Of a DNA stretch of 64,000 bases, positions 2,909 through 64,000 are shown one piece after another. The DNA comes from Eledone cirrhosa (Eukaryota), in assembly GCA_964016885.1 (NCBI GenBank), contig OZ024741.1, positions 278,752,001 through 278,816,000 of the forward strand. The letters run 5' to 3'. Position numbers and translations under genes: made by a program. The notes below the pieces were generated by a model. That model searched no databases. It was not told the origin of the DNA and was given only the letters and a program-made list of their open reading frames with translations. Numbering within the stretch: position 1 is the first letter of the stretch; every line of letters starts with the position of its first letter.

Positions 2909-2911
2909 AAC

Positions 2912-2985
<74 letters not shown>
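2909..2985. repeat. (AAT)n microsatellite, insertion target
   Basis: Direct reading. Confidence 0.95.
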
Positions 2986-2987
<2 letters not shown>

Positions 2988-3010
2988 CTAGATTCTATAA
3001 GGACAATAAT

Positions 3011-12226: not shown

Positions 12227-12227
<1 letters not shown>

Positions 12228-12415
12228 CGAAGGAGTTGTGGTAAGGAACCAGATGGACCATAACGCACCAGAGTACTCAATTCTTAGGGTAGTAGAGTGG
12301 GTAATGGGAAAAAGTATAACCCCGACGGCAGAGCTCAAGCCGTTTCAACGGCTATTTCTGGACCCGAAATAGCCGTCGAAACGGCTTGAGCTCTGCCGTC
12401 GGGGTCATACTTTTT

Positions 12416-12418
<3 letters not shown>
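12227..12418. mobile_element. (TA)n-flanked fold-back element with ~50-bp hairpin
   Basis: Arms 12310-12358 and 12366-12418 are inverted; homologous copy in opposite orientation at 56850-57048. Confidence 0.8.
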
Positions 12419-16329: not shown

Positions 16330-16458
16330 AATTGTTTCTACTTTTGGCACAAGGCCAACAATTATGCCAGTGTATTACTGGTACTTTATTTTATCGACTC
16401 CGTAAGGATGAAAGGCAAAGTTAACCTCGGCGGGATTTGAACTCAGACCGTAAAGGGA
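16330..16458 (-). mobile_element. Family-1 SINE body (head expanded into adjacent array)
   Basis: Core and tail identical to other copies. Confidence 0.85.
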
Positions 16459-18320: not shown

Positions 18321-21300
18321 TCATCCCTTGAATCGCAAGAATGTTTTGCATATTTTGAAGGTGCCAGCTATCGCAGCCATTTGTAGACTATGAATTAGGG
18401 AGCTGCGCTTTTTGTCCGCAAATCCAAGTTCGGTCATACTTTGGTCCAAGCGGGTTGGTATATAACCCGTAGCACCAATAATGATGGGTATGAAGCTAAA
18501 GGTGTATCTTGGATACTGGATTTGTAAGCTCCTCATCAATGGTCCGTAGATGTCCTCCTTCTCCTGCATTTTTCTGACAACGTTTACATCAAGTGGGCAG
18601 CTGATCTCCACAACAGAACACGTTTTCAATGTGTGGTCCCAAACTACAATATCAGGCCGGTTGTGCTTTAATTTGGTCGCAGTTTTTATTTTCAGGTTCC
18701 ACCAGTATTCCTTAGTGCCATCTGTCTCAATATATTCTTCCTCATTTGTTGTTAATTTTGTTTTCCGAAGTGCGTTCCAGATAGTTCTAGCTATCCCATC
18801 GTGTCTCATGGGGAGGTAGTAGCGAGATGACATTCTTTCGCAGCTGGCAACAATGTGGCTTACATCCTCGATCTTTGTTTTACATAGCCTACATTTATTG
18901 TCAGCTGCTGGCCCTCCTCTTTTGTGCAGCAGATATTTGGTAGGGAGTTCTTGTTCCTGTATTGCATAGAGATATCCCTCAAGGTGTGATGTCATAAACT
19001 TGTCGGAACTCCATGCCAGGCTTTTTGAGTGGTTTATCCCCTCTATGGTCTGTGTTTTACGCCTCAAGTATCCATGCACAACTTTCTCTGTAAATTGGTC
19101 AATTTTTTTTTCTTGTTTGAACATTGAATAGGATCTTCCGATTTCTCTGGGTGAGAGATTTATATCAGGCTTTATTCCATATCTCTCCTCCAGATCAGTC
19201 GCTATTCTAATGATATTTCTTTTTTCATGCTCATAAACCTGAGCAAGATGGTCGCCAACCTTTTTCCTCTGTTGAAGGTGTTGCTTCAGTGTTACTATCC
19301 GGGTTTCATATGTTGTTAATATTGATTTTAGACCCCGGCCACCTTCCTTGCGTGAGAAGTATAGCCTATCCACATCACCATTGATGTTAAAGTTCCCAGT
19401 AACACTGAGAAGTTTACGAGTTCTAACATCCATCTCACTTAGTTCTTGCAATGACCAGTTCAGTAGGCCAAATGTTGGCGTTAGAATTGGCACAGCATAG
19501 GTATTGTGGGCAATGTATTTGTTGTATGCTGACAGTTCTGATGACCATATTTTTTTTACTCTTCTGAGGTATTCAGTTCTGGTTCTCTCCTTATTTATGG
19601 GTCCATCATATCTGACATTCTCATCCTGTCCAAGATATCTGTAGTTGTCACCTGACTGCAGAGGTTGTATTGTCAGGCCGTTCATATCTAGATTTCTAGA
19701 GGAGGGCACAGCTCTTCCACGTTTTACTGCCAAATATGCACACTTGGACTCACCAAATTTCATTTTGATGTCGGTTGAAAATTGTGTAATGAGGTCCAAT
19801 TGTTTCTTGATGTCATTGATATTTGGCCCATACAACTTCAGGTCATCAACAAAGAAAAGATGGGAGATACTTCTGGGCCCACTTCTTTGTCCACCTTGTT
19901 TCCTGAGTAGGTAAGATAGTGGATTCAGTGAGAGAACGAAGAGTAGTACTGACAAGCTATCACCCTGAAAGATGCCCTTCTGGTAATGTATCCTATCAGT
20001 CTTAACCTGCTCCTTCTCACCTCTAAGGATCAAATTGGTGTACCAGTTCTTGGTCAGGCGTTCAACAGCAGCTACTAATGATTGTGGGACTTTAGCTAAC
20101 TGTAAAGCCTTAATAATCCACCCATGAGGTACACTATCAAATGCTTTTTGATAGTCCAGCCACACGACAGTCATGTTTCTGCGATTCTTTGTTGTTTTTT
20201 CCTGAATCATTTTGTTAGTTAGTAGGTGATCTATGCAACCCCACACCTCCCTCTTTCCACCAGCTTGCTCAGGTGTTATGATGTTGTTGGTAGCACAGTG
20301 ATCTTGTAAGAACAGGTTAAGGCACCCAGTATATAATTTATACATGATGTTTTGGCAGGCAATTGGGCGGTAATTTTTAGCAAGGGTGGTTTGGCTATTT
20401 TTGGGAATGAGGAGAGTAGTGGCAGTTGATAACCATCTGGGCAGTTCTTGTGTGCCCTTAATGGTTTCTGTAAACAGCCGTATGAGATCTTGCCGATAGA
20501 AAGTGAAATTCTTCAACCAGTATCCTGTAATGAGGTCTGGGCCTGGCGATTTCCTATTCGACATTTTCTGTAGAGCTGTTTCCAGTATTGACCCATCTAT
20601 GTCATATTGTTTTGTCTGGACATGTTGGCAGTAGTCCTGTTCCAGTTGTTTTAGCCAATTAGCTTGTCTGTTGAATCCGTCATCCGTTTCCCATACAGAT
20701 CTCCAGTAGTTCTCAACCTGTTCTTTTGAAGGGGTGTCGTTTACAGGGATTGAGCTTTTGCCACCGAAGCTGCGATAAACTGATTTAGGATCTCTGGCAA
20801 ACAATCTATTTAGCACTTGTCGTTTATGGGCTGTTGACTTATATTTTAGTCTTTCTGTTGTAGCTGTGAGTTGTTGTTTCAACTGGTGTAATTTGGAGTT
20901 CAAAGTTTTAAATTTGGTATCTCCAAATCGTCTCTCTAACTTTTTCTTTAGGTCTTCCTGGTGTCGTGTGAAGTTTCTCTCTATGTTGCATTTCATAACG
21001 ACTGCGATGTGTGAGATACTTCGTCTCAGGGACAAAATTTTGGTTTTTAAATTTCGCATCCACGCTGGTTCAGGCTTTCTGTTTGTATCTTGATTGCGTG
21101 GTTTTAGATGTGTGTTATATGATAGCAATGTGACAGCTGAAACATATAACAAAACATTGAGCGTTTCAAATGTCGTTTCTACACCTTTAGATCGTATAGC
21201 CTTCAGATAATTGCCAGCTATTTCGTTCACCGCTTCCAATTCCAATTTAGTGGGTTCTTTACTGACTCTAGTGTTGTATGGTCTGTCACTCACATTAAGG

Positions 21301-21323
21301 CTGTGTATCTCTTGAAACATATC
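18321..21323 (-). CDS. RT-RLE ORF of an R4-clade LINE, ~1000 aa open, 5'-truncated (element 18241-21324)
   Basis: KSPGPD, YRPIAC, WLDYQKAFDS, GIFQGDSL, FFVDDLK, YRYLG, CRLC..EDVSHIVASC, RHD, RPD; both ends abut (ATAC)n; ORF-track N-terminus is microsatellite. Confidence 0.92.
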   Translation of the reverse strand, partial: DMFQEIHSLNVSDRPYNTRVSKEPTKLELEAVNEIAGNYLKAIRSKGVETTFETLNVLLYVSAVTLLSYNTHLKPRNQDTNRKPEPAWMRNLKTKILSLRRSISHIAVVMKCNIERNFTRHQEDLKKKLERRFGDTKFKTLNSKLHQLKQQLTATTERLKYKSTAHKRQVLNRLFARDPKSVYRSFGGKSSIPVNDTPSKEQVENYWRSVWETDDGFNRQANWLKQLEQDYCQHVQTKQYDIDGSILETALQKMSNRKSPGPDLITGYWLKNFTFYRQDLIRLFTETIKGTQELPRWLSTATTLLIPKNSQTTLAKNYRPIACQNIMYKLYTGCLNLFLQDHCATNNIITPEQAGGKREVWGCIDHLLTNKMIQEKTTKNRRNMTVVWLDYQKAFDSVPHGWIIKALQLAKVPQSLVAAVERLTKNWYTNLILRGEKEQVKTDRIHYQKGIFQGDSLSVLLFVLSLNPLSYLLRKQGGQRSGPRSISHLFFVDDLKLYGPNINDIKKQLDLITQFSTDIKMKFGESKCAYLAVKRGRAVPSSRNLDMNGLTIQPLQSGDNYRYLGQDENVRYDGPINKERTRTEYLRRVKKIWSSELSAYNKYIAHNTYAVPILTPTFGLLNWSLQELSEMDVRTRKLLSVTGNFNINGDVDRLYFSRKEGGRGLKSILTTYETRIVTLKQHLQQRKKVGDHLAQVYEHEKRNIIRIATDLEERYGIKPDINLSPREIGRSYSMFKQEKKIDQFTEKVVHGYLRRKTQTIEGINHSKSLAWSSDKFMTSHLEGYLYAIQEQELPTKYLLHKRGGPAADNKCRLCKTKIEDVSHIVASCERMSSRYYLPMRHDGIARTIWNALRKTKLTTNEEEYIETDGTKEYWWNLKIKTATKLKHNRPDIVVWDHTLKTCSVVEISCPLDVNVVRKMQEKEDIYGPLMRSLQIQYPRYTFSFIPIIIGATGYIPTRLDQSMTELGFADKKRSSLIHSLQMAAIAGTFKICKTFLRFKG

Positions 21324-21375
21324 GTATGTATGTATGTATGTATGTATGTATGTATGTATGTATGTATGTATGTAT

Positions 21376-23557
21376 GTAGATGTCCTCCTTCTCCTGTATT
21401 TTTCTGACAACGTTTACATCAAGTGGGCAGCTTATCTCCACAACAGAACACGTTTTCAATGTGTGGTCCCAAACAACAATATCAGGCCGGTTGTGCTTTA
21501 ATTTGGTGGCAGTTTTTATTTTTAGGTTCCATCAGTATTCCTTAGTGCCATCTGTCTCAATATATTCTTCCTCGTTCGTTGTTAATTTTGTTTTCCGAAG
21601 TGCGTTCCAGATGGTTCTAACTATCCCATCGTGTCTCATGGGGAGGTAGTAGCGAGATGACATTCTTTCGCAGCTGGCAACAATGTGGCTTACATCCTCG
21701 ATCTTTGTTTTACATAGCCTACATTTATTGTCAGCTGTTGGCCCTCCTCTTTTGTGCAGCAGATATTTGGTAGGGAGTTCTTGTTCCTGTATTGCATAGA
21801 GATATCCCTCAAGGTGTGATGTCATAAACTTGTCGGAACTCCATGCCAGGCTTTTTGAGTGGTTTATCCCCTCTATGGTCTGTGTTTTACGCCTCAAGTA
21901 TCCATGCACAACTTTTTCTGTAAATTGGTCAATTTTTTTTATCTTGTTTGAACATTGAATAGGATCTTCCGATTTCTCTGGGTGAGAGATTTATATCAGG
22001 CTTTATTCCATATCTCTCCTCCAGATCAGTCGCTATTCTAATGATATTTTTTTTTCATGCTCATAAACCTGAGCAAGATGGTTGCCAACTTTTTTCCTCT
22101 GTTGAAGGTGTTGCTTCAGTGTTACTATCCGGGTCTCATATGTTGTTAATATTGATTTTAGACCCCGGCCACCTTCCTTGCGTGAGAAGTATAGCCTATC
22201 CACATCACCATTGATGTTAAAGTTCCCAGTAACACTGAGAAGTTTTCGAGTTCTAACATCCATCTCACTTAGTTCTTGCAATGACCAGTTCAGCAGGCCA
22301 AATGTTGGCGTTAGAATTGGCACAGCATAAGTATTGTGGGCAATGTATTTGTTGTACGCTGACAGTTCTGATGACCATATTTTCTTTACTCTTCTGAGGT
22401 ATTCAGTTCTGGTTCTCTCCTTATTTATGGGTCCATCATATCTGACATTCTCATCCTGTCCAAGATATCTGTAGTTGTCACCTGACTGTAGAGGTTGTAT
22501 TGTCAGGCCGTTCATCTCTAGATTTCTAGAGGAGGGCACAGCTCTTCCACGTTTTACTGCCAAATATGCACACTTGGACTCACCAAATTTCATTTTGATG
22601 TCGGTTGAAAATTGTGTAATGAGGTCCAATTGTTTCTTGATGTCATTGATATTTGGCCCATACAACTTCAGGTCATCAACAAAGAAAAAATGGGAGATAC
22701 TTCTGGACCCACTTCTTTGTCCACCTTGTTTCCTGAGTAGGTAAGATAGTGGATTCAGTGAGAGAACGAAGAGTAGCACTGACAAGCTATCACCCTGAAA
22801 GATGCTCTTCTGGTAATGTATCTTATCAGTCTTAACTTGCTCCTTCTCACCTCTAAGGATCAAATTGGTGTACCAGTTCTTGGTCAGGCGTTCAACAGCA
22901 GCTACCAGTGGTTGTGGGACTTTAGCTAACTGTAAAGCCTTAATAATCCACCCATGAGGTACACTATCAAATGCTTTTTGATAGTCCAGCCACACCACAG
23001 TCATGTTTCTCCAATTCTTTGTTGTTTTTTCCTGAATCATTTTGTTAGTTAGTAGGTGATCTATGCAACCCCACACCTCCCTCTTTCCAGCAGCTTGCTC
23101 AGGTGTTATGATACTGTTGGTAGCACAGTGATCTTGTAAGAACAGGTTAAGGCACCCAGTATATAATTTATACATGATGTTTTGGCAGGCTATTGGGCGG
23201 TAATTTTTAGCAAGGGTGGTTTGGCTATTTTGGGGAATGAAGAGAGTAGTGGCAGTTGATAACCATCTGGGCAGTTCTTGTGTGCCTTTAATGGTTTCTG
23301 TAAACAGCCGTATGAGATCTTGCCGATAGAAAGTGAAATTCTTCAACCAGTATCTTGTAATGAGGTCTGGGCCTGGCGATTTCCTATTCAACATTTTCTG
23401 TAGAGCTGTTTCCAGTATTGACCCATCTATGTCATATTGTTTTGTCTGGACATGTTGGCAGTAGTCCTGTTCCAGTTCTTTTAGCCAATTAGTTTGTCTG
23501 TTGAATCCGTCATCCGTTTCCCATACAGATCTCCAGTAGCTCTCAACCTGTTCTTTT
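21376..23557 (-). pseudogene. Second copy of the same R4 family, truncated at both ends and frameshifted
   Basis: Near-identical to 18546-20727; ORFs 22033-23685 and 21532-21909. Confidence 0.9.
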
Positions 23558-23754
23558 GTATGTCGGCGACTAAACCGGCAACTCCACCAAGCTTGCTTGA
23601 TGAGGAGAGTGGTTTTTGGACAACCTGCGGGATGAAAAACAAAACCCATCAGAGAGCGGAGGAACTCAGAAGAGTCAACGGTCATTCAATACTTATTTTT
23701 TTTTTTTTTGTGGATCGAGGGACTCCTAGTCTTCATTAAGACATCTCTCTAGGA

Positions 23755-32049: not shown

Positions 32050-34756
32050 TGAAGGGAAAATAATAAGTGTCACTGAGGCCCCACCCCAGAAAGACAGATT
32101 GCTTTTGGAGAAAAATATGGGGTGAAAAGAAGAATTTCAACCAAGATGCAGTGTGGCTAAAAGAAATCCAAAAGAACTATTGCTCCTACACTACAAACAA
32201 AAACATACGAAATAAGTGAGGGTACCCTTGAGACTGTGATAGGAAAACTCCAAGATAAGAAAACACCAGGAAGAGACATGATTGTCGGCTACTGGTACAA
32301 AAAACTGATATTCTATCGGAGGTATCTTACTGACCTCTACCAACAAGTTCTTAAGGGAGATACACTTATACCAGAATGGTTGACATTAGCACAAACATTA
32401 CTGGTCCCCAAGAACAAAGACACCCACCTGGCAAAAAATTACCGACCCATTGCATGCCAGAACCTAATATATAAGATGTATACAGCTTGGCTGAACCTAT
32501 TCCTCCAAGATCACTGTGAAGATAATAACATCATCACAGATGAACAAGCAGCTGGAAAGAAAGGGGTTTGGGGATGTGCTGAACAACTCCTAATCAACAA
32601 AACTGCGATGTCGGAGGTGCGATAACTTAGGAGGAATATGGCTAGTCTGCCTGGACTACAGAAAAGCTTTCGATTTTGTTCCCCACTCTTGGATGATAGA
32701 GGCCCTCCAACTTGCTAAAGTTCCAGACATTATTAGATGATGTCTTCTTCTTGGGCTACTATCCTAAGGTTAAAGACAGAGAGGGAGGACTCTATTTTCA
32801 CTGACAAAATGAAATATCGCAGGGGTATATTTCAGGGAGACAGTCTCTCTGTGATATTATTCATCCTGTCATTAAACCCCTTGTCCTTTCTGCTCAAGAA
32901 ATGTGAAGGATACATCATTGGCTCACAGGAGGACAGAAATACGAACCTAACCCATAATTTCTTTGTGGATGATCTGAAACTCTATGCCAAGAACATGGAT
33001 GGGATGAAGAAAAATTTTGACTTGGTTACAACATTCTCAAAGGATATAGGAATGGAGTTTGGCCAAGATAAATGCTCATATATGACTGTAAAGCGGAGAA
33101 AAACAACAACCCAATCTAGCAACATTTGTATCAATGACCTAACTGTTTCACCGATATCTGATGAGGAGTGCTACAGATACCCGGGGATAGATGAGAACAT
33201 ATCCTATAATGGTATCTGTAATAAAGAACGCGTAACCAGGGAATACTACACCCGATTAAGAAAGATTTGGTCATCGGAACTCTCTACGCAAAACAAAACA
33301 GTGGCTCACAATGTGTTTGCTGTGCCTGTCCTAACACCAACGTTTGGAATACTCAATTGGACGATAGACGAAATCCGAGCGATTGATGTTAGAACTCGAA
33401 AGATACTAAACAACACCGGAAACTTCCACATCAACAGTGACATAGACCGCCTTTACTTGAAACGTAAGCAGGGAGGCAGAGGCCTAACATCAGTCCAGAC
33501 AGCATTTGAATGTCGCATCATATCCCTCCGACAACATCTTACGAACCTCAAAGCGTAGGAGCCCGTTTCTCGAGAAAGTCTATCTGCATGAAACAGATAA
33601 GATCATGAGAGTTGGGAAGGAACTCCTCGAGAGGTATTCCGTGTGATAATCAAAAACTCACACCCAGGGAAGTAGCTCAGCAGTATCGCAGTGAATCCAT
33701 GGATGAAAAACTGCATGCTTATCAGCAAAAAATAATGCATGGATATGTTGCCAGGAAGCTCCAGAGTGAGAGTAATATAGATAAGGAAAGTAGTCTATCT
33801 TGGACCAACAACCGGTATATTGGCTCTCACTTTGAAGGATACGCTTTTGCAATCCAAGAACAGGAAATCAACACGAAATACCTGATTCACAAAAGAGATA
33901 GGGATGCAGGCAAAACACCTAGATGTGATAACAAGTGCAGACACTGCAGAATTAACATCGAAGATGTCACCCATGTCATAAGCAGCTGTCCAAAGACGTC
34001 ATCGCGGTACTATCTACTTATGAGGCATGATGTAGTGGCCAAATTACTGTACAATGCAATCCGTAGAAAAGATAGCCCCGATAATAAACACATTAAAAGC
34101 TACAGCAATATGGAAGACATCTATGTACATAATATGAAAGAGTACAGGTGGAATGTTCCAGTAAAAACCTCAATAAAATGCAGGCATAACAGACCAGATA
34201 TTATGATATGGGACAGGGAAAAGAAGGCATGCACAGTAGTGGAAGTTAGCTGTCCAGCAGATGCCAATATAATATCAAAGATTAGTGAAAAGGAGAATAT
34301 TTATGCAGAACTGATGAGAAATCTGCAGATACTCCATCCTGATTACACCTTCAGATTTATGCCTGTGATTATTGGGGCACTGGGGTATGTTAGTAACTGC
34401 CTCAATATAAATCTTGAGAAGCTGGGTTTCACAGGAACAGAAATAACACAACTAGTTAGGAAATTACAAGTACAATCCATTAATGGAACCATAAAAATAT
34501 GTAAAACATTCCAAAAATGTTGCATCTAATAACTGCATATACACATGTACAGATACTAAGCATATACACATGCACACATACAACTCAAAACATACACATC
34601 CATACATACAATAACATCCATATCTACACATGCATGCATACATAATCTACCTAGTTGATGTTGTGTAAATTCCAATGAGAGAGTCTTGTGTCTATGTTAG
34701 AAACCGACTCTCTCTCTATTGGCAAAAATTTGTGAAATTATAAAACCAGAAGAACA
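32050..34756 (+). pseudogene. Decayed R4-clade LINE (related to the ATAC-associated family)
   Basis: ORFs 32236-32625, 32737-33558, 33612-34529 give YRPIAC, GIFQGDSL, FFVDDLK, CRHC..HVISSC, RHD, RPD; ends at (ATAC)n-like tract. Confidence 0.9.
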
Positions 34757-35644: not shown

Positions 35645-36103
35645 ATAATCAAGGTTTAGCAAATAAGAAAAAGTTACAAAATAAATTTTAAAAAATTAAT
35701 TTTACTTTCTATGGTTACCTTTACCGAATCGGTTTCGAGTCACAAAAATAAACGGAGTCCATACGGCATCCGTTGCAAAGATAAACTCTCGTCAGAAGGT
35801 TCTTTCACTCGGAGAATATAAAATTCCCGAGTTCAAATTACGAACTGGCGCTATTCAAAATTGTTCCCGAGATGAGAGAAAATGAAGTGGAATCAAATCT
35901 TTCAAGTGCCGTGTGTAAAGATAGAGGCATAGTGAGTAAAGTTAATTTTTTAAAATTTATTTTGAAACTTTTTCTTATTTGCTAAACCTTGATTATATAT
36001 TTTCTGGCTCGTTAATTTATTAACCTGCCATTGAACCACATTGGCATATGGTTGGACAATACATGTGTCCCTTAGCGCCTTGTGCGTGTAGGAACATATA
36101 CTC

Positions 36104-36107
<4 letters not shown>
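35645..36107. mobile_element. (TA)n-flanked Penelope-like non-coding element with inverted ends
   Basis: 35645-35706 inverted at 35935-35998; contains HHR. Confidence 0.75.
35717..35800 (-). ncRNA. Type I hammerhead ribozyme with extended stem II
   Basis: ACCUU-CUGACGA-GAGU..(AACGGA/UCCGUU)..ACUC-GAAACCG-AUU-CGGUA-AAGGU; all three stems pair; GUA site. Confidence 0.88.
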
Positions 36108-36680: not shown

Positions 36681-37703
<1,023 letters not shown>

Positions 37704-37716
37704 ATATATATGTATA

Positions 37717-37808
<92 letters not shown>

Positions 37809-38765: not shown

Positions 38766-38801
<36 letters not shown>

Positions 38802-38842
38802 TAGGAATAACCAAATAGTGCTTAAAAATACATTGTTTTATT

Positions 38843-38889
38843 AGCTAACAGTGTTTCATCCATACCCCATGGCAGGAATCATCAGAGCC
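38843..38889 (-). ncRNA. Minimal type I hammerhead ribozyme
   Basis: Reverse complement of 39906-39952. Confidence 0.75.
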
Positions 38890-39905
38890 TATAAACAAGA
38901 GTATATCAATAGTTGCATGTTCCATCGAGCTGCGTCACCAGAACAAGGTTAAAGGACCAGCAGGGGGGGGGGCGAGGCCACCGCTATATGGACAAAGACA
39001 GAATACATGATGCACATAATGTCATAAAATGTCTTAAAAAATTACATCAAAAATAATAAATTAAATGGGGAATGCCAGTTATTGCGGACCTGGTGTATTT
39101 TCAATTTCCTCACTTGTGTGCCGGCTGTACATGTACCATACATTTCTTTAACTCGTCGTACTTTCTTTTATTTTTTATTTTAGATTTTAAGTGTATATCC
39201 CAGACCGCCTATGGTGATAAATCCCCTGGGTATAGGTTTTGGAAAAATAGTGTTATCTCTCTTAACGTTCGGAACTGGAACATATCGATGTGGTTCGTAG
39301 GAATCTGATATGATAAGGAGAATCGACCTGTTATAAGGCGATATAATTGGAGTACACCATCCCTCATATGGACTATCATACATGTAAGGCTGCACCAGTG
39401 CTAACCAACTATTCTTCTCACAGACTCATGCTTGCAAACTCTCTTAATCTGCCTGTACACCCTCTTTTTGCACTGCTTGTGCTCTGATGTATCTATGCTT
39501 TGCTTTGTTTTATATTTTTTGGGGGAGGGGGGGGGGGGGCTTTTTGTTCCTTTATTGTTTTGTATTTCTATATTTATCTCTTTTGTTATCTCTGTATTTT
39601 TGTACATTTTTATTTTTTTTTTTATTGTTTCTGATCATGCTGAGTAATACCTTCACTCATCCCTTGATACCCTCTCCCAACCTTTTTATCATCTATTGCA
39701 CCATTTAAGTGATAAATCTTTGGTGTAATTTTTAATTTTTAATTTTTGATGTAATCTTTTAAGACATTTTATGACATTATGTGCATCATGTATTCTGTCA
39801 TGTTCCATATAGCGCTGGCCTCGGGACCCCCCTGCTGGTTCTTTAACTTTGTTCTGGTGACGCAGCTCGATGGAGCATGCAACTATTGATATACTCTTGT
39901 TTATA

Positions 39906-39952
39906 GGCTCTGATGATTCCTGCCATGGGGTATGGATGAAACACTGTTAGCT
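39906..39952 (+). ncRNA. Minimal type I hammerhead ribozyme
   Basis: GGCU-CUGAUGA-U-UCCUGCC..GGUAUGGA-U-GAAAC-ACU-GUU-AGCU. Confidence 0.75.
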
Positions 39953-40139
39953 AATAAAACAATGCATTTCTAAGCACGCTTTGGTTATTCCTATAACTAT
40001 AATGGCTCTGTAGTATACTAGTTATCCTACATTGAGCTAAAACCACACTGTCATACCAAGGGCAATATATCTGCGTCTCTGGGCATATTGATATATTTGT
40101 CAACTAAACTATATATATATATATATATAGTATATATAG

Positions 40140-40760
40140 AGTTATAAATTCAAAATAGTCTTTTACAATTAAATAGCTCAAAGAAAGGAATATTTCCGAG
40201 CCGTGTAATACAAATGAATATCTGATAGGGATAAACACCGATACAAGTATACATGTGTTCGCATTGCAAATGACCAAGTTAGCTAGATTGAAAAATACTA
40301 ATTAAAATAATACGGTTTGCCTGTCTCGATTTAAAATAATAAATCAATAAAAATAAACCTATATTGGCAATATAAAACAAAGCAAAGCATAGATACATCA
40401 GAGCACAAGCAGTGCAAAAAGAGGGTGTACAGGCAGATTAAGAGAGTTTGCAAGCATGAGTCTGTGAGAAGAATAGTTGGTTATCATAAAGTTACTATTC
40501 CTGTGCTCTTCTGCGGGTACCCACAAATTGGTAATCACAGGAATAGTAACTTTCACTTAATTGTTGCGAAACAAATTAAAAATTTGTCCGGGTATCACGG
40601 CTATTGCCAATATAGGTTTGTTTTTATTGATTTATTATTTTAAATCGAGACAGGCAAACCGTATTATTTTAATTAGTATTTTTCAATCTAGCTAACTTGG
40701 TCATTTGCAATGCGAACACATGTATACTTGTATCGGTGTTTATCCCTATCCGATATTCAA
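40140..40760. mobile_element. Inverted-repeat element with captured spacer
   Basis: 40224-40372 inverted at 40602-40750; spacer 40370-40482 is the reverse complement of 39402-39514. Confidence 0.75.
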
Positions 40761-40837
40761 TTGTGTATATATATATATATATGTGTGTGTATATATATAT
40801 ATATATATGTGTGTATGTATATATATATATATGTGTG

Positions 40838-41055: not shown

Positions 41056-41218
41056 TCTACCTGGAGTTGCGACCGATAGATAGTATTAGCAATTGGAAAG
41101 ACCAACGGAAACATTGTTCCCTCGGTCCGATTCGACGAAAGTTGATCGTTCCTTTATATACATTACACATATATTCTCGGCTGTCTTCTAGTCCAGCAGT
41201 CGCAAGCGGTGGGAGGGA

Positions 41219-41260
41219 CCGTCCTGACGAAGGCCAGTTAAGCCTGAAATGCATAGACGG
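41219..41260 (+). ncRNA. Minimal type I hammerhead ribozyme
   Basis: CCGUC-CUGACGA-AGGC-CAGUUAA-GCCU-GAAAU-GC-AUA-GACGG; palindromic AUGCAU stem III. Confidence 0.85.
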
Positions 41261-41411
41261 TTGTCCCACTGGCTTCTGCTGGACATCACCAGAGGGCGTT
41301 AGCCCACCGGTGTTTGCATAGCTACGGCTTCCTGAAACCGTATTTCTTTGGAGATACGAAATACTTATACATATTGCATAAAGCTATGCTTGAAGCGAAA
41401 TCCTATTTCTT

Positions 41412-45026: not shown

Positions 45027-45260
45027 ATATTGTTATACTTTGGGAGGGTCATGTTGCCAATAAGAATCACACGCACCAGTTGCATTCACTCCAATTTATT
45101 ATAAATTAAATTTATAAATTTAAGAATTTATAAATTGAATTTATAATAAATTGGAGTGAAAGCAACTGGTGCGTGTGTTTCTTATTGGCAACATGACCCT
45201 CCCAAAGCATAACAATATCGGTTTCAACACACGTTTTCAGATAAAGAATCTTGCTAAACA
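45027..45260. repeat. (TA)n-anchored palindrome (~190 bp)
   Basis: 45027-45120 inverted at 45125-45217; related tail at 50050-50090. Confidence 0.8.
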
Positions 45261-45589
45261 AATTCAGAAACGAAATATATATATATATATATATATATAT
45301 GAATTTTCATAAAATGTAGTATTCTCTGCGCGATAGGTAGGCGTAAACAGCTGAATACTATATGTATAGTAAAAGGTCGGGTTCAGATATAACCATATAT
45401 TGAACGAAGAGCAGGAGAGAAAGGCAGAAAGAGAGCCTAAAGCATGAGATGAGAAATGAGAGGGATACATATATATATATATAGAGAGAGAGACAGGAGA
45501 TGGAGGGAGGCGAGAGGAGAGAATAGGAGAAAAGCGGGAATGAAATCGATGGAGCAGAACTTTATATATATCATCATCACCATCATCAT

Positions 45590-48971: not shown

Positions 48972-48999
<28 letters not shown>

Positions 49000-49006
<7 letters not shown>

Positions 49007-49490
49007 TATCCACGGTAAGTTGTGGGGTCCAGTCTGGATGAAGAACTCAATGTAATCCATATGTTGAAAATGTTGTAGGTTAAAATAAATCCCGGAAAAC
49101 AATAAAATATTAAAAGGAAAACAGAGTTAAAACAGAGTCATGATATAAGTTAAAACAATGAAATAAAAAAATCAAGTCATTAGAAATATACTTCACTGCT
49201 TTACGATCGTTTCTAGGTGATGATAATACATCGTAACTATACTTCGTTATCGATCTATGTACGGTTAGTTACATAATAACAGATAAAGAGAATATTTACT
49301 TACATGCATATCACCAGCTGTTGTGATATGCGTGCAAGTAAATATTCTCCTTATCTGATATTTTGTAACTAACCTTACATAGATCGATAACGAAGTATAG
49401 TTACGATGTATTATCATCACCTAGAAACGATCGTAAAGCAGTGAAGTATATTTCTAATGACTTGATTTTTTATTTCATTGTTTTAAGTTA
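49000..49490. mobile_element. (TA)n-flanked ~345-bp palindrome with HHR 3' half
   Basis: 49146-49314 inverted at 49323-49490; GAAACG-AU-CGUA-AAGC at 49424-49439. Confidence 0.7.
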
Positions 49491-50385: not shown

Positions 50386-50740
50386 AATGTAATCTGAGTT
50401 TTTCGAATATTAATAATAACATTCGATTCGTTTGCAATTATGCAAACAAGCCTCAATTTTATAGCCAAGTCAATAGAATGAACACTTCATTCTTGCTCTT
50501 ATGTTGGCATGCAAGCGACATGGCTATAAAATTGAGGCTTGTTTGCATAATTGCAAACGAATCGAATGTTATTATTAATATTCGAAAAGGCAAAGTTAAC
50601 CTCAAATCCCGCCGAGGTTAACTTTGCCTTTCATCCTTACGGGGTCGATAAAATAAAGTACCAGTAATTTACTGTTTAATTGCTGGCCTTGTGTCAATGG
50701 TAGAAACAATTATTAATATTCGAAAAACTCAGATTACATT
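50386..50740. repeat. Palindrome with SINE inserted into right arm
   Basis: 50386-50467 inverted at 50521-50740; SINE 50589-50710 with TSD TATTAATATTCGAAAA. Confidence 0.8.
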
Positions 50741-51931: not shown

Positions 51932-52063
51932 ATGTGTATGCGTGTGTGTGTGTATATTTGTGTGTTTGTGTTTTTCCTGTGTATATATGTATATATGTGT
52001 ATGTATGTGTGTGTGTGTGTGCGTATATGTATGTGTGTGTGTGTGTATGTGTATGCGCACACA

Positions 52064-52111
<48 letters not shown>

Positions 52112-53404
52112 CGTGTGAATGTGTGGGTGTGCACACACACACAAACATGTGTATGTGTGTGTGTATGTGTATGTAGGTATATATGTATGTGTGTGTGTAA
52201 GTGTTTTTGTATGTGGTTGTGAGTATGTAAATATATTTTATTCTTTCCATTCTACAAAAACACTCTGGCCACCTGTGGCTTGTATGTTAACTTGACCACT
52301 CACCCCAATCTGTGCCATGATTCGGTCTTGTTAAATGTTTAATTTCTATTACCAACCCACCTAAAAATTTCCCTACTATATATCTGTTGAATTACTATTC
52401 TTGGGGTTTTTATTTATTTATTTATTTTTTATTTATTTCTTTATTTATTATTTATTCATTTATCTATTTATTTATTCATTTATTTATTTATTTATTTATT
52501 TACTTATTTATTTATTTCAAAAAAGCACTCTGAACCTTCTGAAGACAGACTTAAGACTTTTCTATATATGTACACACACATATATATAAGTAAGTTTTTT
52601 TTAATATATCCTACACAGGTGAAAATATAGGAAAATGAAATTGGAATTTTTAAGAAGGTTTATTTACAAGAATTTATAACTTTAGCGGTTTCATATGTTT
52701 CTTGAAAAGTTAAGAGATATGGAGAGATATGTGGATATGCTAACTTGAAACTGATGTTGGGAAAAATGATAAATTATCGTAAATAAACCTTCTTAACGAC
52801 ACCAATTGCATTTTCAACTTCGTTTTCCTGTATATATATATATCCCGGCTTCAATTGGGTAACCACAGTAAGTAAGGTACTCAATACATAGCAGAGTATA
52901 CATATTTAATATAGAAATAGCTTCTACAGGAGATGATTTCTCCCGAATGAAACAGTTCTAGTCCTGTAGAAGCCATTTATATATATATATAAGGAAAAGA
53001 ATGACTTCACTTGTAGTCCTAAACAATTTGATTTACCTAACTGTACCAAGGATTTCACACATTTTTCAATATATTTATATATATATATATATACACACAT
53101 ATATATCTATATCTATAACAATGAAAATGTCTGGCTGTGTGTGTGTGTGTGTGTGTGTCTGTTACGCAGCAACTTTTGATCCTCAAGTCCGATTTTCAAA
53201 CTTTCTTTTGTAATCAAGCACAAATTTATCAGGGCAGGTCGGCACGACATTGCGAATGATCGACTCATCCCCCTTTGTCCAAGTAAAGAATCGATAAAAC
53301 TGACTATAGGTACGACTTTGCACAGAAAAAATCTCTATATCTATAAAAATGAAAAAGAGAGAGTGAGAGTGAAAGAAGCAGACAGACTAAAAGAGGGGGA
53401 TAGC

Positions 53405-53441
<37 letters not shown>

Positions 53442-53639
53442 GCTGCGTTTGATACATGACAGTGGAAAAGGGGCAGGAAAGCTATAACTAATTAACATGT
53501 GTGCGTGTGTGTCTGTGCGTGCGCGTGTGTGTGTTCGTGCAGCGTTCCAGTAAGAATTAAATCTATTAACATGTGTGTGTACGTGCACACGTGCGTGCGT
53601 GAGTTTGCGTGTGTTTGAGCGTTTGCGTGCGTGAGTGTG

Positions 53640-53703
<64 letters not shown>

Positions 53704-53704
53704 T

Positions 53705-55498
<1,794 letters not shown>

Positions 55499-56270
55499 TC
55501 AACACTGCGACACAAACTGTCTTCTAACAATCAAATACCTCGCTGCTTTCAATAATTACCAAATTGTAGACATACTGCCTTTTTGAAATTAATAACACCA
55601 TACATTTTCGACTGTAAACGTTGTGACCACTTTGAGCTGCACGGTATTGAAATGCACGTTCCCCTCTGGTTGGTTGAGCCAGTTTTCCATGGATTCACCA
55701 GCACGTGCAGCAGACGTTGATTCACATGGCTTTGCTGCCGCAGTTGACGCCGTGTTTCGGTTGATACAGCTCAAACAGCAGACGTTGACTCACAGTTCTT
55801 TGCTGCCGCAGTTGACGCTGTGTTTCGATTGATGCAGCTCGAGCTGCGGAAGTTGCCTCAGCATTTCTATGCCGCCGTAATGAACACTGTGGTTCGTTCT
55901 CTGCATCTCCTGCAATAGACGTTGCCTCAATATTTGCCAAACATCCCACATTATTGTCATAAATTCCATGTGACTCACTTTTGGGCTGGTGACTTCCTTG
56001 TGGCATAGTTCGCGTTTGGAGCTTCACCGCGTCAACGTCACACTTTTACACTCATTCACCTTTCATATGCCATAACATTTTACCGCTTTTACATCGAACA
56101 ACACAAACGTCTTATGGTTAAAAATAAATGTTTTGGGGGGGGGGTTCGTGCTACGTTGTTTTCTCTTTAAAAAAATTATTTACTAATGGTAGACTTACAC
56201 CCGGGAAACGCCGGGTATGGCTGCTAGTATATATATATTAAAATAACAGATTATAGTTTATATATATATA

Positions 56271-56807
56271 CGAGAATAATCCCAAAAGAAAGGTCTCCAA
56301 AGCGATGGGGACGCAGAGATATTGAAACTTTTCCGTTAAAATCCTGTGGATGATGATTCGGGAAACCAAAGGAACCAAAATGCAGATAGTGTGACCCGCC
56401 GATCTTTACGCATGTTTTCCTGAACCTTTGCGACTGTCATGTCGGAAATTGACGGTCTCCCGCTCCTTTGTTCGTCGGCAATTTCATTACGACCGGCTGT
56501 ACACTCTCTACACCATGCACGACTGTCCATACACTTCCGTCAATTGGCGATGAATTTCAATCGGTTCAACGCCTTTTGAGTTCAAAAACCGAATAACTGC
56601 GCAAACTTCACACTTGGCGGTAGCGTTCAACGGGAGCTCCATTCTCAACGGCTGCCAAGCCAAGATTGAGCATCCCAGCGAAGCGCGCGCATGCTTGTTT
56701 GGGAGTGAAGGAAGCACCAATCACAACAGTGTTGCCAACAGCCGTACGAACACAGTTTGTCTGCGTCCCCATCGCTTTGGAGACCTTACTTTTGGGAGAT
56801 TATCCTC

Positions 56808-56808
<1 letters not shown>
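56271..56808 (-). mobile_element. Internally deleted mariner in (TA)n
   Basis: ~47-bp TIRs (CGAGAATAATCCCAAAAGAAAGGTCTCCAAAGCGATGGGGACGCAGA and its near complement), TA flanks; AVIRFL..EIHRQLTEVYG..RSGRPS HTH region. Confidence 0.88.
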
Positions 56809-56849
<41 letters not shown>

Positions 56850-56851
<2 letters not shown>

Positions 56852-57046
56852 AGGAGAGAGTATGACCCCGACGGCAGAGCACAAGCCATTTCGACGGCTA
56901 TTTCTGGACGTCCTGAAATAGCCGTCGAAACAGCTTGAGCTCTGCCGTCGGGGGTCATACTCTCTCCTATTACCCACTCTACTACCCCAAGTATTGAGTA
57001 CTCTGGTGCGTTATGGTCCATCTGGTTCCTTACCACAACTCCTCCG

Positions 57047-57048
<2 letters not shown>
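56850..57048. mobile_element. (TA)n-flanked fold-back element, sister of 12227-12418
   Basis: Homologous, opposite orientation. Confidence 0.8.
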
Positions 57049-57084
<36 letters not shown>

Positions 57085-57334
57085 GATATTAAATAAATGG
57101 AAACTATATTTATAAAACCATATTTATTTCATTATATATATTTCAGGGATATCATATTAACAATATGTTATGCCTTCTTCAGACAAAATACAATATAGAC
57201 AGTTTTATAGATAAATAGATTTGACATACCGTTCAACATCGACTTGTATTTGAAAAAGTTGATTTGGCAAATCAACTTTTTATATCAGTTATAAATATTT
57301 ACTAGTTGTAACCCAACAATTTAAATATAACTTT

Positions 57335-57373
<39 letters not shown>

Positions 57374-57491
57374 TAACAGATTAAAGTTTAAGCAAAGAAT
57401 CTCTGCTTTCACCCTTAACGGGATCTTTTGATTTTATATATTTTGATATAAACATTATCCTTATCGAGCCCTCTTCGGATTTTAGTCTTCA

Positions 57492-57721
57492 TGACACGGC
57501 TAGGAGGTATAGGTTAAAAAGAAGATTACACACACGCACACATATATATATAGTAATAATTGTTTCTACTTTTGGCACAAGGCCAGCAAATACCCAGTGT
57601 ATTACTGGTACTACACTGGGTAATTGCTGGCCTTGTGCCAAAAGTAGAAACAATTATTACTATATATATATGTGTGCGTGTGTGTATTCTTCTTTTTAAC
57701 CTATACCTCCTAGCCGTGTCG
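57492..57721. repeat. Palindrome centred on a SINE tail
   Basis: 57492-57600 inverted at 57613-57721. Confidence 0.85.
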
Positions 57722-58774
57722 TAGGGGCGCTGTAGTGTCATACAGCGTATCTCGGTGTTTCTTTTAACATGGCGGATCCCATTTCCTCTCCAGGTTTGAA
57801 CACAACCGATTTTTTTCAGAGAAGGGGAGAGGGGTGATAAAAATAAGTAATAAAGTGGAGAAAACGGCTTGTACTTTTTATCAAACTCGAAAGGATGAAA
57901 AGCACATTTGACTTCGCCTTGGCGGGATTCGAACTCAGAGAGCAGAGAACCGAAACAAATACCGATATTCTAATAAATCGCCCACCAACTGTACCTGATT
58001 GATCTCTCTCTCTTTCTATATATACATATGCCAACAGATTAATTACTAGGAGAAAATGTTTAAGATTCAATTATATTTGATAATGATTAAAGAATATATT
58101 AAAGAAAATTGCTATATTTGATGTAAATAAAAGTAAAATGGAATTACGTGGGAAAATAATATCTAATGCAGTTCATAAATTGCCTGGACACCAAATGTCT
58201 ACTTAAAGCGAAAGAAGTCCCATGTAGTTTGTAACGGAATAAGACGCTGAGGTCGATATAGAAAAACTAGTTACAGGTGTAGAGGCCCCGAGAGAATTTA
58301 ACTGTTCTCAATATTAAATATAAACTTGACTGAAGGTTATACATAATATAATATATAATATGATACAATATAATGTATTATATATTATAAGTATGAAACA
58401 AAACCACAAATTTGTAGTTGAGGAATATATTTCTCACAAGCGGACGCAATGAAACATTGAATATATATTTGCATGTATGTGTGTATGTATGTATGTATGT
58501 ATGTATGTATGTATGTATGTATGTATGTATGTATGTATGTATGCATGCATGTATGTATTGCATATATATGAGGGTTGCACATTTTTTCGGGGGTATGTGT
58601 TACCCATATGAAATGTCTGCCCCTATTGGGGAAAATCGATTAATTTTTAAATTGCATTTGTGATAGTATTTTACACGTTTTTATTGTATGTAAACTTCCT
58701 CCTTTGTATTTGTCCCCTTCTTTTGTGCCCCTGTGTCTAATAAAGAAACATATCTATTTATCTATCTATATCTA

Positions 58775-58857
<83 letters not shown>

Positions 58858-58924
58858 GACGTAAAATAAGAAAATATTTTTTTAAAAAAATTTAAAAAAA
58901 ATTTTTTTCCTTACTTAAATTTTC

Positions 58925-59006
58925 ACTCCAACTAATTAGTTTCTGCAATGGGATAAAGACAGTTACGTAATCCAACTGTCGAGAATTCATTGCGTCATCA
59001 GGAAGT
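58925..59006 (-). ncRNA. Type I HHR in left arm (also 59484-59565, 60044-60125, 60603-60684, 61162-61243)
   Basis: Reverse complement of the motif at 61662-61743. Confidence 0.87.
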
Positions 59007-61661
59007 CTATTCTCAGTTAAGTCTCCAGGCAATGCGCGGACACTGGCGGCTCATATAAAAATAATAATAATTCGGTAGATCGAACAGCTTGCGAGGACTG
59101 GATTCTATGTACCGAAATTCTCACTGCTTCAAGTCAAATGGCCGATTCTAAAGAATCAATCACGTGACACAGAGGCTAGTTAGAAGGAATGGGATGGTAA
59201 GATGACTGACGCCTACTAACACCCCCAAAAAAATTTTTTTTAGAAGTGGTTTTGACAAGTTTGCTCGACAAATCAGTGATTTGGAGATAAATATAGATAA
59301 TTTAATATATCAACTAACATAAGCGCACAGATGCACGCCCATGCCAGCAAATACACAGGTTATGTCATAGTACCTAGGTGGTTCAATGCAGGAGAATGCA
59401 GAACAATAATATAAAGGACGTAAAATAAGAAAATATTTTTTTAAAAAAATTTAAAAAAAATTTTTTTCCTTACTTAAATTTTCACTCCAACTAATTAGTT
59501 TCTGCAATGGGATAAAGACAGTTACGTAATCCAACTGTCGAGAATTCATTGCGTCATCAGGAAGTCTATTCTCAGTTAAGTCTCCAGGCAATGCGCGGAC
59601 ACTGGCGGCTCATATAAAAATAATAATAATTCGGTAGATCGAACAGCTTGCGAGGACTGGATTCTATGTACCGAAATTCTCACTGCTTCAAGTCAAATGG
59701 CCGATTCTAAAGAATCAATCACGTGACACAGAGGCTAGTTAGAAGGAATGGGATGGTAAGATGACTGACGCCTACTAACACCCCCAAAAAAATTTTTTTT
59801 TAGAAGTGGTTTTGACAAGTTTGCTCGACAAATCAGTGATTTGGAGATAAATATAGATAATTTAATATATCAACTAACATAAGCGCACAGATGCACGCCC
59901 ATGCCAGCAAATACACAGGTTATGTCATAGTACCTAGGTGGTTCAATGCAGGAGAATGCAGAACAATAATATAAAGGACGTAAAATAAGAAAATATTTTT
60001 TTAAAAAAATTTAAAAAAAATTTTTTTCCTTACTTAAATTTTCACTCCAACTAATTAGTTTCTGCAATGGGATAAAGACAGTTACGTAATCCAACTGTCG
60101 AGAATTCATTGCGTCATCAGGAAGTCTATTCTCAGTTAAGTCTCCAGGCAATGCGCGGACACTGGCGGCTCATATAAAAATAATAATAATTCGGTAGATC
60201 GAACAGCTTGCGAGGACTGGATTCTATGTACCGAAATTCTCACTGCTTCAAGTCAAATGGCCGATTCTAAAGAATCAATCACGTGACACAGAGGCTAGTT
60301 AGAAGGAATGGGATGGTAAGATGACTGACGCCTACTAACACCCCCAAAAAAATTTTTTTTAGAAGTGGTTTTGACAAGTTTGCTCGACAAATCAGTGATT
60401 TGGAGATAAATATAGATAATTTAATATATCAACTAACATAAGCGCACAGATGCACGCCCATGCCAGCAAATACACAGGTTATGTCATAGTACCTAGGTGG
60501 TTCAATGCAGGAGAATGCAGAACAATAATATAAAGGACGTAAAATAAGAAAATATTTTTTTAAAAAAATTTAAAAAAAATTTTTTTCCTTACTTAAATTT
60601 TCACTCCAACTAATTAGTTTCTGCAATGGGATAAAGACAGTTACGTAATCCAACTGTCGAGAATTCATTGCGTCATCAGGAAGTCTATTCTCAGTTAAGT
60701 CTCCAGGCAATGCGCGGACACTGGCGGCTCATATAAAAATAATAATAATTCGGTAGATCGAACAGCTTGCGAGGACTGGATTCTATGTACCGAAATTCTC
60801 ACTGCTTCAAGTCAAATGGCCGATTCTAAAGAATCAATCACGTGACACAGAGGCTAGTTAGAAGGAATGGGATGGTAAGATGACTGACGCCTACTAACAC
60901 CCCCAAAAAAATTTTTTTTAGAAGTGGTTTTGACAAGTTTGCTCGACAAATCAGTGATTTGGAGATAAATATAGATAATTTAATATATCAACTAACATAA
61001 GCGCACAGATGCACGCCCATGCCAGCAAATACACAGGTTATGTCATAGTACCTAGGTGGTTCAATGCAGGAGAATGCAGAACAATAATATAAAGGACGTA
61101 AAATAAGAAAATATTTTTTTAAAAAAATTTAAAAAAAATTTTTTTCCTTACTTAAATTTTCACTCCAACTAATTAGTTTCTGCAATGGGATAAAGACAGT
61201 TACGTAATCCAACTGTCGAGAATTCATTGCGTCATCAGGAAGTCTATTCTCAGTTAAGTCTCCAGGCAATGCGCGGACACTGGCGGCTCATATAAAAATA
61301 ATAATAATTCGGTAGATCGAACAGCTTGCGAGGACTGGATTCTATGTACCGAAATTCTCACTGCTTCAAGTCAAATGGCCGATTCTAAAGAATCAATCAC
61401 GTGACACAGAGGCTAGTTAGAAGGAATGGGATGGTAAGATGACTGACGCCTACTAACACCCCCAAAAAAATTTTTTTTAGAAGTGGTTTTGACAAGTTTG
61501 CTCGACAAATCAGTGATTTGGAGATAAATATAGATAATTTAATATATCAACTAACATAAGCGCACAGATGCACGCCCAAGCTGTTCGATCTACCGAATTA
61601 TTATTATTTTTATATGAGCCGCCAGTGTCCGCGCATTGCCTGGAGACTTAACTGAGAATAG

Positions 61662-61743
61662 ACTTCCTGATGACGCAATGAATTCTCGACAGTTGGATTA
61701 CGTAACTGTCTTTATCCCATTGCAGAAACTAATTAGTTGGAGT
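61662..61743 (+). ncRNA. Type I HHR in right arm (also 62223-62304, 62782-62863, 63341-63422, 63900-63981)
   Basis: ACUUC-CUGAUGA-C-GCAAUG..GACAGUUG/UAACUGUC..CAUUGC-A-GAAAC-UAAUUA-GUU-GGAGU; predicted cut after 61738. Confidence 0.87.
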
Positions 61744-64000
61744 GAAAATTTAAGTAAGGAAAAAAATTTTTTTTAAATTTTTTTAAAAAAATATTTTCTT
61801 ATTTTACGTCCTTTATATTATTGTTCTGCATTCTCCTGCATTGAACCACCTAGGTACTATGACATAACCTGTGTATTTGCTGGCATGGGCGTGCATCTGT
61901 GCGCTTATGTTAGTTGATATATTAAATTATCTATATTTATCTCCAAATCACTGATTTGTCGAGCAAACTTGTCAAAACCACTTCTAAAAAAAAAATTTTT
62001 TTGGGGGTGTTAGTAGGCGTCAGTCATCTTACAATCCCATTCCTTCTAACTAGCCTCTGTGTCACGTGATTGATTCTTTAGAATCGGCCATTTGACTTGA
62101 AGCAGTGAGAATTTCGGTACATAGAATCCAGTCCTCGCAAGCTGTTCGATCTACCGAATTATTATTATTTTTATATGAGCCGCCAGTGTCCGCGCATTGC
62201 CTGGAGACTTAACTGAGAATAGACTTCCTGATGACGCAATGAATTCTCGACAGTTGGATTACGTAACTGTCTTTATCCCATTGCAGAAACTAATTAGTTG
62301 GAGTGAAAATTTAAGTAAGGAAAAAAATTTTTTTTAAATTTTTTTAAAAAAATATTTTCTTATTTTACGTCCTTTATATTATTGTTCTGCATTCTCCTGC
62401 ATTGAACCACCTAGGTACTATGACATAACCTGTGTATTTGCTGGCATGGGCGTGCATCTGTGCGCTTATGTTAGTTGATATATTAAATTATCTATATTTA
62501 TCTCCAAATCACTGATTTGTCGAGCAAACTTGTCAAAACCACTTCTAAAAAAAATTTTTTTGGGGGTGTTAGTAGGCGTCAGTCATCTTACCATCCCATT
62601 CCTTCTAACTAGCCTCTGTGTCACGTGATTGATTCTTTAGAATCGGCCATTTGACTTGAAGCAGTGAGAATTTCGGTACATAGAATCCAGTCCTCGCAAG
62701 CTGTTCGATCTACCGAATTATTATTATTTTTATATGAGCCGCCAGTGTCCGCGCATTGCCTGGAGACTTAACTGAGAATAGACTTCCTGATGACGCAATG
62801 AATTCTCGACAGTTGGATTACGTAACTGTCTTTATCCCATTGCAGAAACTAATTAGTTGGAGTGAAAATTTAAGTAAGGAAAAAAATTTTTTTTAAATTT
62901 TTTTAAAAAAATATTTTCTTATTTTACGTCCTTTATATTATTGTTCTGCATTCTCCTGCATTGAACCACCTAGGTACTATGACATAACCTGTGTATTTGC
63001 TGGCATGGGCGTGCATCTGTGCGCTTATGTTAGTTGATATATTAAATTATCTATATTTATCTCCAAATCACTGATTTGTCGAGCAAACTTGTCAAAACCA
63101 CTTCTAAAAAAAATTTTTTGGGGGGTGTTAGTAGGCGTCAGTCATCTTACCATCCCATTCCTTCTAACTAGCCTCTGTGTCACGTGATTGATTCTTTAGA
63201 ATCGGCCATTTGACTTGAAGCAGTGAGAATTTCGGTACATAGAATCCAGTCCTCGCAAGCTGTTCGATCTACCGAATTATTATTATTTTTATATGAGCCG
63301 CCAGTGTCCGCGCATTGCCTGGAGACTTAACTGAGAATAGACTTCCTGATGACGCAATGAATTCTCGACAGTTGGATTACGTAACTGTCTTTATCCCATT
63401 GCAGAAACTAATTAGTTGGAGTGAAAATTTAAGTAAGGAAAAAAATTTTTTTTAAATTTTTTTAAAAAAATATTTTCTTATTTTACGTCCTTTATATTAT
63501 TGTTCTGCATTCTCCTGCATTGAACCACCTAGGTACTATGACATAACCTGTGTATTTGCTGGCATGGGCGTGCATCTGTGCGCTTATGTTAGTTGATATA
63601 TTAAATTATCTATATTTATCTCCAAATCACTGATTTGTCGAGCAAACTTGTCAAAACCACTTCTAAAAAAAATTTTTTTGGGGGTGTTAGTAGGCGTCAG
63701 TCATCTTACCATCCCATTCCTTCTAACTAGCCTCTGTGTCACGTGATTGATTCTTTAGAATCGGCCATTTGACTTGAAGCAGTGAGAATTTCGGTACATA
63801 GAATCCAGTCCTCGCAAGCTGTTCGATCTACCGAATTATTATTATTTTTATATGAGCCGCCAGTGTCCGCGCATTGCCTGGAGACTTAACTGAGAATAGA
63901 CTTCCTGATGACGCAATGAATTCTCGACAGTTGGATTACGTAACTGTCTTTATCCCATTGCAGAAACTAATTAGTTGGAGTGAAAATTTAAGTAAGGAAA

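Follow-up and report, generated by a model that had tools for sequence, protein, structure and literature searches.

Opposed multi-unit arms in a hammerhead repeat array of Eledone cirrhosa point to a probable two-ended insertion by a Penelope-type enzyme

What process could leave a tandem array of a short non-coding repeat that changes strand partway along, so that its two halves form a multi-kilobase inverted repeat? Such an array lies at the right-hand end of the stretch of Eledone cirrhosa DNA analysed here (OZ024741.1, 278,752,001-278,816,000, forward strand), which we call the window; it is 64,000 nt long, and all coordinates below are positions in it. The window is repeat-rich animal DNA with many (TA)n tracts and with remnants of non-LTR reverse transcriptase (RT), hAT and PIF1 elements, and its dispersed repeats presumably resemble octopod SINEs. 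The array is built from a 559-bp non-coding unit, whose position 1 was set at window position 58855, and its parts are as follows:

58777..58854, no strand: (TC)n then (TA)n microsatellite adjoining the left end of the array, the putative target site
58855..61578, minus strand (the hammerhead sense strand): left arm, four full 559/560-bp units plus 487 nt
61329..61576, no strand: central unpaired spacer, 248 nt, unit positions 238-485, present in the left arm only
61577..61578, no strand: strand-switch junction, a 2-nt CA overlap common to both arms, with no inserted bases
61577..64000, plus strand: right arm, 237 nt plus three full units plus at least 508 nt, continuing past the window end

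The exact unit match of the left arm stops at 61578, and that of the right arm begins at 61577, at unit position 237. The first-pass annotation had described a strand switch at this point through a 2-nt CA overlap, turning the array into a multi-kilobase palindrome, and both descriptions are borne out: no base is added at the junction, and the arms, with the 248-nt spacer between them, show five differences over ~2,420 aligned nucleotides, four of which fall inside a homopolymer run of C, A or T and one of which is a G>T change. The CA overlap was rejected as a signal in itself, since an overlap of at least 2 nt is expected in 17.7% of all unit phase pairs (P = 0.18) and is uninformative on its own. 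The sense 3' end of the left arm, which we call the short end, is at 58855; its mirror point is 64051, 51 nt outside the window, and as far as the window reaches the right arm is not longer than the left.

Hammerheads were located by a motif-and-stem scan, which found a type I motif in 10 of the 10 units that cover the motif region. The innermost motif of each arm, together with an older and smaller copy of the element that served for comparison, is given here:

61162..61243, minus strand: left-arm hammerhead motif nearest the junction, with H17 at 61167 and further copies at 60679, 60120, 59560 and 59001
61662..61743, plus strand: type I hammerhead motif nearest the junction in the right arm, with H17 at 61738 and further copies at 62228, 62787, 63346 and 63905
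53704..54135 (53702 also used as the start), no strand: small, older copy, head-to-head, lying between (TA)n and (TC)n(TA)n

The five motifs of the left arm (59001-61238) are on the minus strand and the five of the right arm (61667-63905) on the plus strand, so the sense 3' ends face outward on both sides, as had been claimed. Each predicted ribozyme combines a 5-bp stem I, an extended stem II, a palindromic stem III and a GUU triplet. Helix II has a C-A mismatch at its base, which together with the GUU triplet may slow the predicted ribozyme. When positions 52000-64000 were searched against Rfam, 44 matches were obtained at E<=1, none of them a hammerhead. Between the array and the small copy (two sequences), 22/22 hammerhead pairs are kept, four through two-sided changes, a result equalled by 37 of 500 shuffles, and the hammerhead region by itself folds with a z-score of -1.6. 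At 61665 the array hammerhead carries a U in place of the C of the small copy and of most reads, changing a C-G to a U-G pair in helix I; this is one of several alleles common to both arms and minor in public runs.

The unit as a whole has a GC content of 0.36 (36%), below 50%, and is without an ORF, the longest stop-free frame being 52 aa in three concatenated units. Folded as a circle it reaches a z-score of -3.9, with 0/40 shuffles as low. A 25-nt motif from the hammerhead end had 0 matches among metagenome and viral contigs. By these sequence features the unit fits a non-LTR retrozyme with a predicted hammerhead.

Having no ORF, the unit lacks the RT and GIY-YIG frame of an autonomous Penelope-like element (PLE), and because it has no coding frame its enzyme would have been supplied in trans, from a PLE outside the window. 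No GIY-YIG match was found in 123 of the 137 window frames of at least 70 aa; the other 14 lie across the RT and hAT remnants of the 18.5-25 kb region. The RT frames of the window, identified by RVT_1 matches, are of the non-LTR type and lie at 2900-5512 (+), 18321-21413 (-), 22033-23685 (-) and 32161-34529 (+); 18321-21413 is a 1030-aa open frame, which a second, partial copy adjoins. A remnant at 53100-56230 contains a PIF1 helicase frame (54076-55281, E 7e-38), just downstream of the small retrozyme copy, and its ends are, we presume, Helitron-like. A 32-bp tandem repeat of ~40 copies, 96% alike and with several open frames, occupies 16457-17722.

The immediate surroundings bear on how the array arose. 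The small copy is ~80% identical to the unit and has the geometry that had been attributed to it, with unit 1-214 running forward at 53710-53908 and unit 117-1 then 558-430 in reverse at 53920-54150; its arms differ at 2/115 nt, and its one whole hammerhead (53841, minus strand) is in the left arm only. Its end and the left end of the array are at the same unit phase. Beyond the short-end phase one arm of the small copy carries an extension, at 54022-54135, which we call the tail and which corresponds to a segment of the array unit. Two further elements share this layout:

61814..61928, plus strand: unit tail segment, unit positions 559-445, with two predicted hairpins flanking an ACCAC linker
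35647..36106, no strand: sister element, a (TA)n-bounded fold-back with an outward hammerhead at 35795 (minus strand) and a 112-nt tail on one side
38797..40109, no strand: sister element, a (TA)n-bounded fold-back with outward hammerheads at 38885 (minus strand) and 39910 (plus strand) and a 111-nt one-sided tail; its arms are 93% alike

In the small copy and the two sister elements the tails are 111-115 nt long, are present on one arm only and have motifs in common. The tail hairpins of the array and the small copy fold with z-scores of -3.0 and -3.2, and those of the other two sister tails with -1.8 and -1.1; all 29 of 29 consensus pairs are kept, two of them through a double change.

Terminal inverted arms were found in 11/53 (TA)n-bounded intervals, against 16/2756 cross-paired ends and 25/1060 random placements. 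In three of the 11 (35647, 38797 and 53702) a hammerhead faces outward and the short end, which sits on (TA)n, follows the predicted cut site by 50-75 nt. Arm identity in these three is 90-98%, which marks them as old genomic features and not read errors. Head-to-head geometry is thus ordinary within the window, although the 11 fold-backs are of mixed kinds. That at 56271-56808 (538 bp) has symmetric ends with terminal inverted repeats of ~47 bp in TA and a weak Mos1 HTH_48 match (E 0.009, under the curated cut-off), and is probably a mariner deletion derivative. Those at 12227-12417 and 56847-57047 represent one element of ~190 bp, the two copies being 90% identical; both are flanked by (TA)n tracts and consist of a ~115-nt hairpin with an identical centre plus a ~80-nt tail. 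The fold-back seems to transpose as a unit, and the pair was rejected as a case of variable-junction insertion because the hairpin centre is the same in both. At 57552 the fold-back consists of the end of an abundant repeat in palindromic form. The remaining four (37032, 40130, 45031 and 48999) fall in none of the classes given to these seven.

Near-perfect centres were seen in the fold-backs at 37032-37722, 45031-45274, 48999-49488 and 50400-50588, and the hammerhead scan found no motif in any of these; the first three lie between (TA)n tracts and have one-sided extensions of 38-151 nt. They are possibly other non-autonomous PLE or Naiad-type families. The spacer of 40130-40765 carries a 118-bp, 99%-identical inverted copy of 39399-39516, whose source is ~850 bp upstream within the neighbouring element, and looks like local DNA captured during the joining of two arms. 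Solo hammerhead-like motifs of other families, with a palindromic helix III, are present at 41217-41262 (plus strand) and 57125-57190 (minus strand).

We think it probable that the array is a non-LTR retrozyme that a PLE enzyme reverse-transcribed from the two DNA ends left by a cut in (TA)n, using an RNA template that was multimeric and uncut, or circular; the array itself is likely a single recent insertion. Like a PLE insertion, it joins an inverted 5'-truncated copy head-to-head and abuts a (TA)n/AT-rich target at its left end, the right end and any target-site duplication falling beyond the window. A Penelope-type enzyme, acting in trans from a PLE absent from the window, would cut the (TA)n tract on both strands and copy the unit RNA inward from each cut end. 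The left cDNA would begin at a 'short' start site, 75 nt downstream of the predicted ribozyme cut site, and the right cDNA probably at a 'long' site ~115 nt further on; on a monomer cut by the ribozyme, both proposed start sites would fall in the first ~190 nt. The two cDNAs would then stop at phases (487 and 237) that bear no relation to each other, pairing over 2 bp would join their 3' ends (..CA and ..TG), and host repair would fill in the second strands.

Priming from both DNA ends, already put forward in the first-pass annotation, gains support from the one-sided tails: a tail missing from the other arm has not been copied back from that arm, which favours two separate priming events over fold-back copying. 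It is further supported by work with a purified PLE, Poseidon, which cleaves AT-rich DNA on both strands and extends both, initiates at two positions inside the RNA, one at each border of the tail, and uses mostly uncut RNA (PMC11167929). The CA overlap, being at chance level, adds nothing to this part of the claim. As for the template, each arm spans five predicted cut sites and the left end lies 75 nt downstream of one, so the RNA was an uncut multimer or a circle, or else the array grew from a seed of more than one unit; the earlier suggestion of a circular or multimeric template holds to this extent, although in sequence a circle, a linear multimer and later local expansion look the same. 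The more specific version, in which one Penelope-type complex copied a circular ribozyme RNA by two-ended rolling circle, with more than four turns on each side, we put forward tentatively, as a possibility that we would not at present bet on; if it is true, the array would preserve in the genome an instance of rolling-circle reverse transcription from two ends and would be direct structural evidence that Penelope machinery inserts animal retrozymes, with the longer, structured tail marking a second start site.

Could the junction instead be a product of the sequencing or the assembly, a folded-back long read or a misassembly having fused an ordinary tandem array with its reverse complement? 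We consider this unlikely, and public sequencing runs bear on it in part. Of 24 listed runs, none of them on record as RNA, 20 contain part of the unit, and five, under three organism labels, contain at least half of 51 words. Compared with the unit monomer, run X24 yielded 6,115 reads, with 735 head-to-tail 559-bp joints, and the same joint is present in contigs of X1, X4 and X5, that is, in 4/4 runs examined; its occurrence in independent runs shows that the tandem family exists and is common to more than one organism. None of these four runs lists a strand-change joint at a 1% threshold, the runs not being known to come from this individual, so the evidence for the junction is that of the assembly itself. 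X24 was cut at AATT, and since one AATT is 19 nt from the junction its power to show the junction is lowered. Six X24 pile-up ends (59235, 59299, 59302, 59543, 59631 and 59675) were rejected as element termini and treated as library cut sites because 6/6 are on AATT; one X24 pile-up end coincided with the tail end of the small copy. The summed contig depth of X1, which is not a measure of copy number, is highest near the 3' end.

The arms are nearly identical, as a folded-back read would make them, and form a near-perfect mirror around one breakpoint, like the long-read artefacts described with Breakinator (PMC12870357); both also carry alleles at 59416, 59562 and 59576 that are in the minority in the public runs, X24 among them, and the discriminating position, 64051, is beyond the window. 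According to the available part of the same source, fold-backs make up ~0.55-0.6% of nanopore genomic DNA reads and HiFi data are virtually free of them, which would weigh against an artefact if this assembly was built from HiFi reads. Against an artefact, there are 0 foreign bases at the junction, the 248-nt offset exceeds the 200-nt working definition in that text (PMC12870357), and the few unit variants are not mirrored between the arms, a weak argument as most of them are in homopolymers. The same geometry recurs in old, diverged copies of the same family and in two sister families.

A second alternative is self-priming: one long cDNA would have folded back at unit position 236-237 and then been copied back. 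Self-priming on the antisense strand is the published proposal for head-to-head PLE junctions, as given in the accessible text of PMC3846280, and it predicts both identical arms and the same 2-nt overlap; in keeping with it, the right arm does not exceed the length of the left inside the window. The junction is without a palindrome, however, which leaves 2 nt to pair across a 248-nt loop, and the one-sided tails of the small copy and the two sister elements would need an extra jump. We therefore judge this route quite unlikely. A later rearrangement, in which a head-to-head seed or a plain array was expanded by unequal crossover or was inverted by a replication template switch, appears very unlikely to us: local expansion of PLE ends into arrays is favoured in the available text of bioRxiv 10.64898/2026.07.22.740005 and the homogeneous units fit recent homogenisation, but a crossover seed needs more than one unit per arm, so that this route too calls for a template longer than the unit, the arms have the same alleles, something that would not be needed under independent expansion, and a template switch should leave a second junction, of which there is none in the window.

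Under the preferred reading, two-ended copying by a PLE enzyme, the palindrome would be a by-product of insertion and not a device for making dsRNA. Read-through into kilobases of dsRNA had also been proposed, and here the claim divides. A transcript crossing the junction on either strand would indeed fold back, 82/82 nt of its first sense hammerhead pairing with the other arm, so that the ribozyme would be blocked in such a transcript; if it cut first, the break is predicted 160 nt beyond the junction on the plus strand and 410 nt beyond it on the minus strand. The unit's own sense transcripts, on the other hand, diverge from the junction and never cross it, and a hairpin would therefore need a flanking promoter or a host intron. 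From the sequence, then, kilobase dsRNA is conditional on an outside promoter reading inward. A>G counts in the public runs were rejected as evidence of editing because the runs are DNA or of unknown kind.

We finally compared the array with the systems that it most resembles, citing several of the papers from the portions of text available. With the animal non-LTR retrozymes (PMC7229834; bioRxiv 10.64898/2026.07.22.740005) it shares a non-coding, low-GC tandem unit with one type I hammerhead each and a compact predicted circle. The unit length of 559 bp falls within the 51-972 bp reported by Li et al. (bioRxiv 10.64898/2026.07.22.740005) and exceeds the 150-450 bp of the retrozymes of Cervera and de la Pena 2020 (PMC7229834). 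What sets it apart from these is its division into two arms of several units each, facing in opposite directions. In the available texts the word 'inverted' has 0 occurrences in Cervera 2020 (PMC7229834), and Li et al. (bioRxiv 10.64898/2026.07.22.740005) use it once, within the title of a reference; a search of the retrozyme, Penelope and cephalopod literature, mostly open-access and taken as main texts, turned up no retrozyme with several units in each of two opposed arms.

The hammerheads are like those of the PLE type, as far as described in the accessible part of PMC4209133, in that helix I is short (5 bp), helix II long and helix III palindromic, with an additional base following A9, and differ from them in an extra A before G12, which makes the C-A mismatch noted above, and in the GUU cut triplet; in that account PLE-type hammerheads occur as paired motifs 100-700 bp apart on opposite strands (PMC4209133). 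PLEs usually insert at (TA)n, with a tail of 30-40 bp on one end and, on the 5' side, a 5'-truncated copy in inverted orientation (PMC8557442, in the text available). With the inverted pLTRs of the endonuclease-bearing PLEs Penelope/Poseidon, Neptune and Naiad (PMC8557442, PMC3846280, PMC11167929) the array has in common head-to-head 5'-truncated copies, a (TA)n target and a hammerhead upstream of the 3' end, and the one-sided tail of such insertions is seen here in the sister copies, at 111-115 nt as against the published 30-40 nt (PMC8557442). The array differs in having no ORF and no junction palindrome, and in that its arms are whole-unit multimers and not one short pLTR. The likeness to inverted Penelope pLTRs, drawn in the first-pass annotation, is accordingly supported, but the geometry itself is already known, being the commonest published PLE arrangement in the available text of PMC3846280 and that of 11/53 intervals here; the unusual part is the presence of more than four units on both arms. 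Li et al. note limited empirical evidence for the retrozyme life cycle (bioRxiv 10.64898/2026.07.22.740005, available text), and mobilisation of animal retrozymes by PLEs has so far been argued from co-occurrence and phylogeny. The hammerhead, short start site and tail would together make a testable RNA substrate for an in vitro PLE assay. The PLE-specific scars (head-to-head join, short end on (TA)n and one-sided tail) and the multi-unit arms would, if the preferred reading is true, tie retrozymes to PLEs at one locus.
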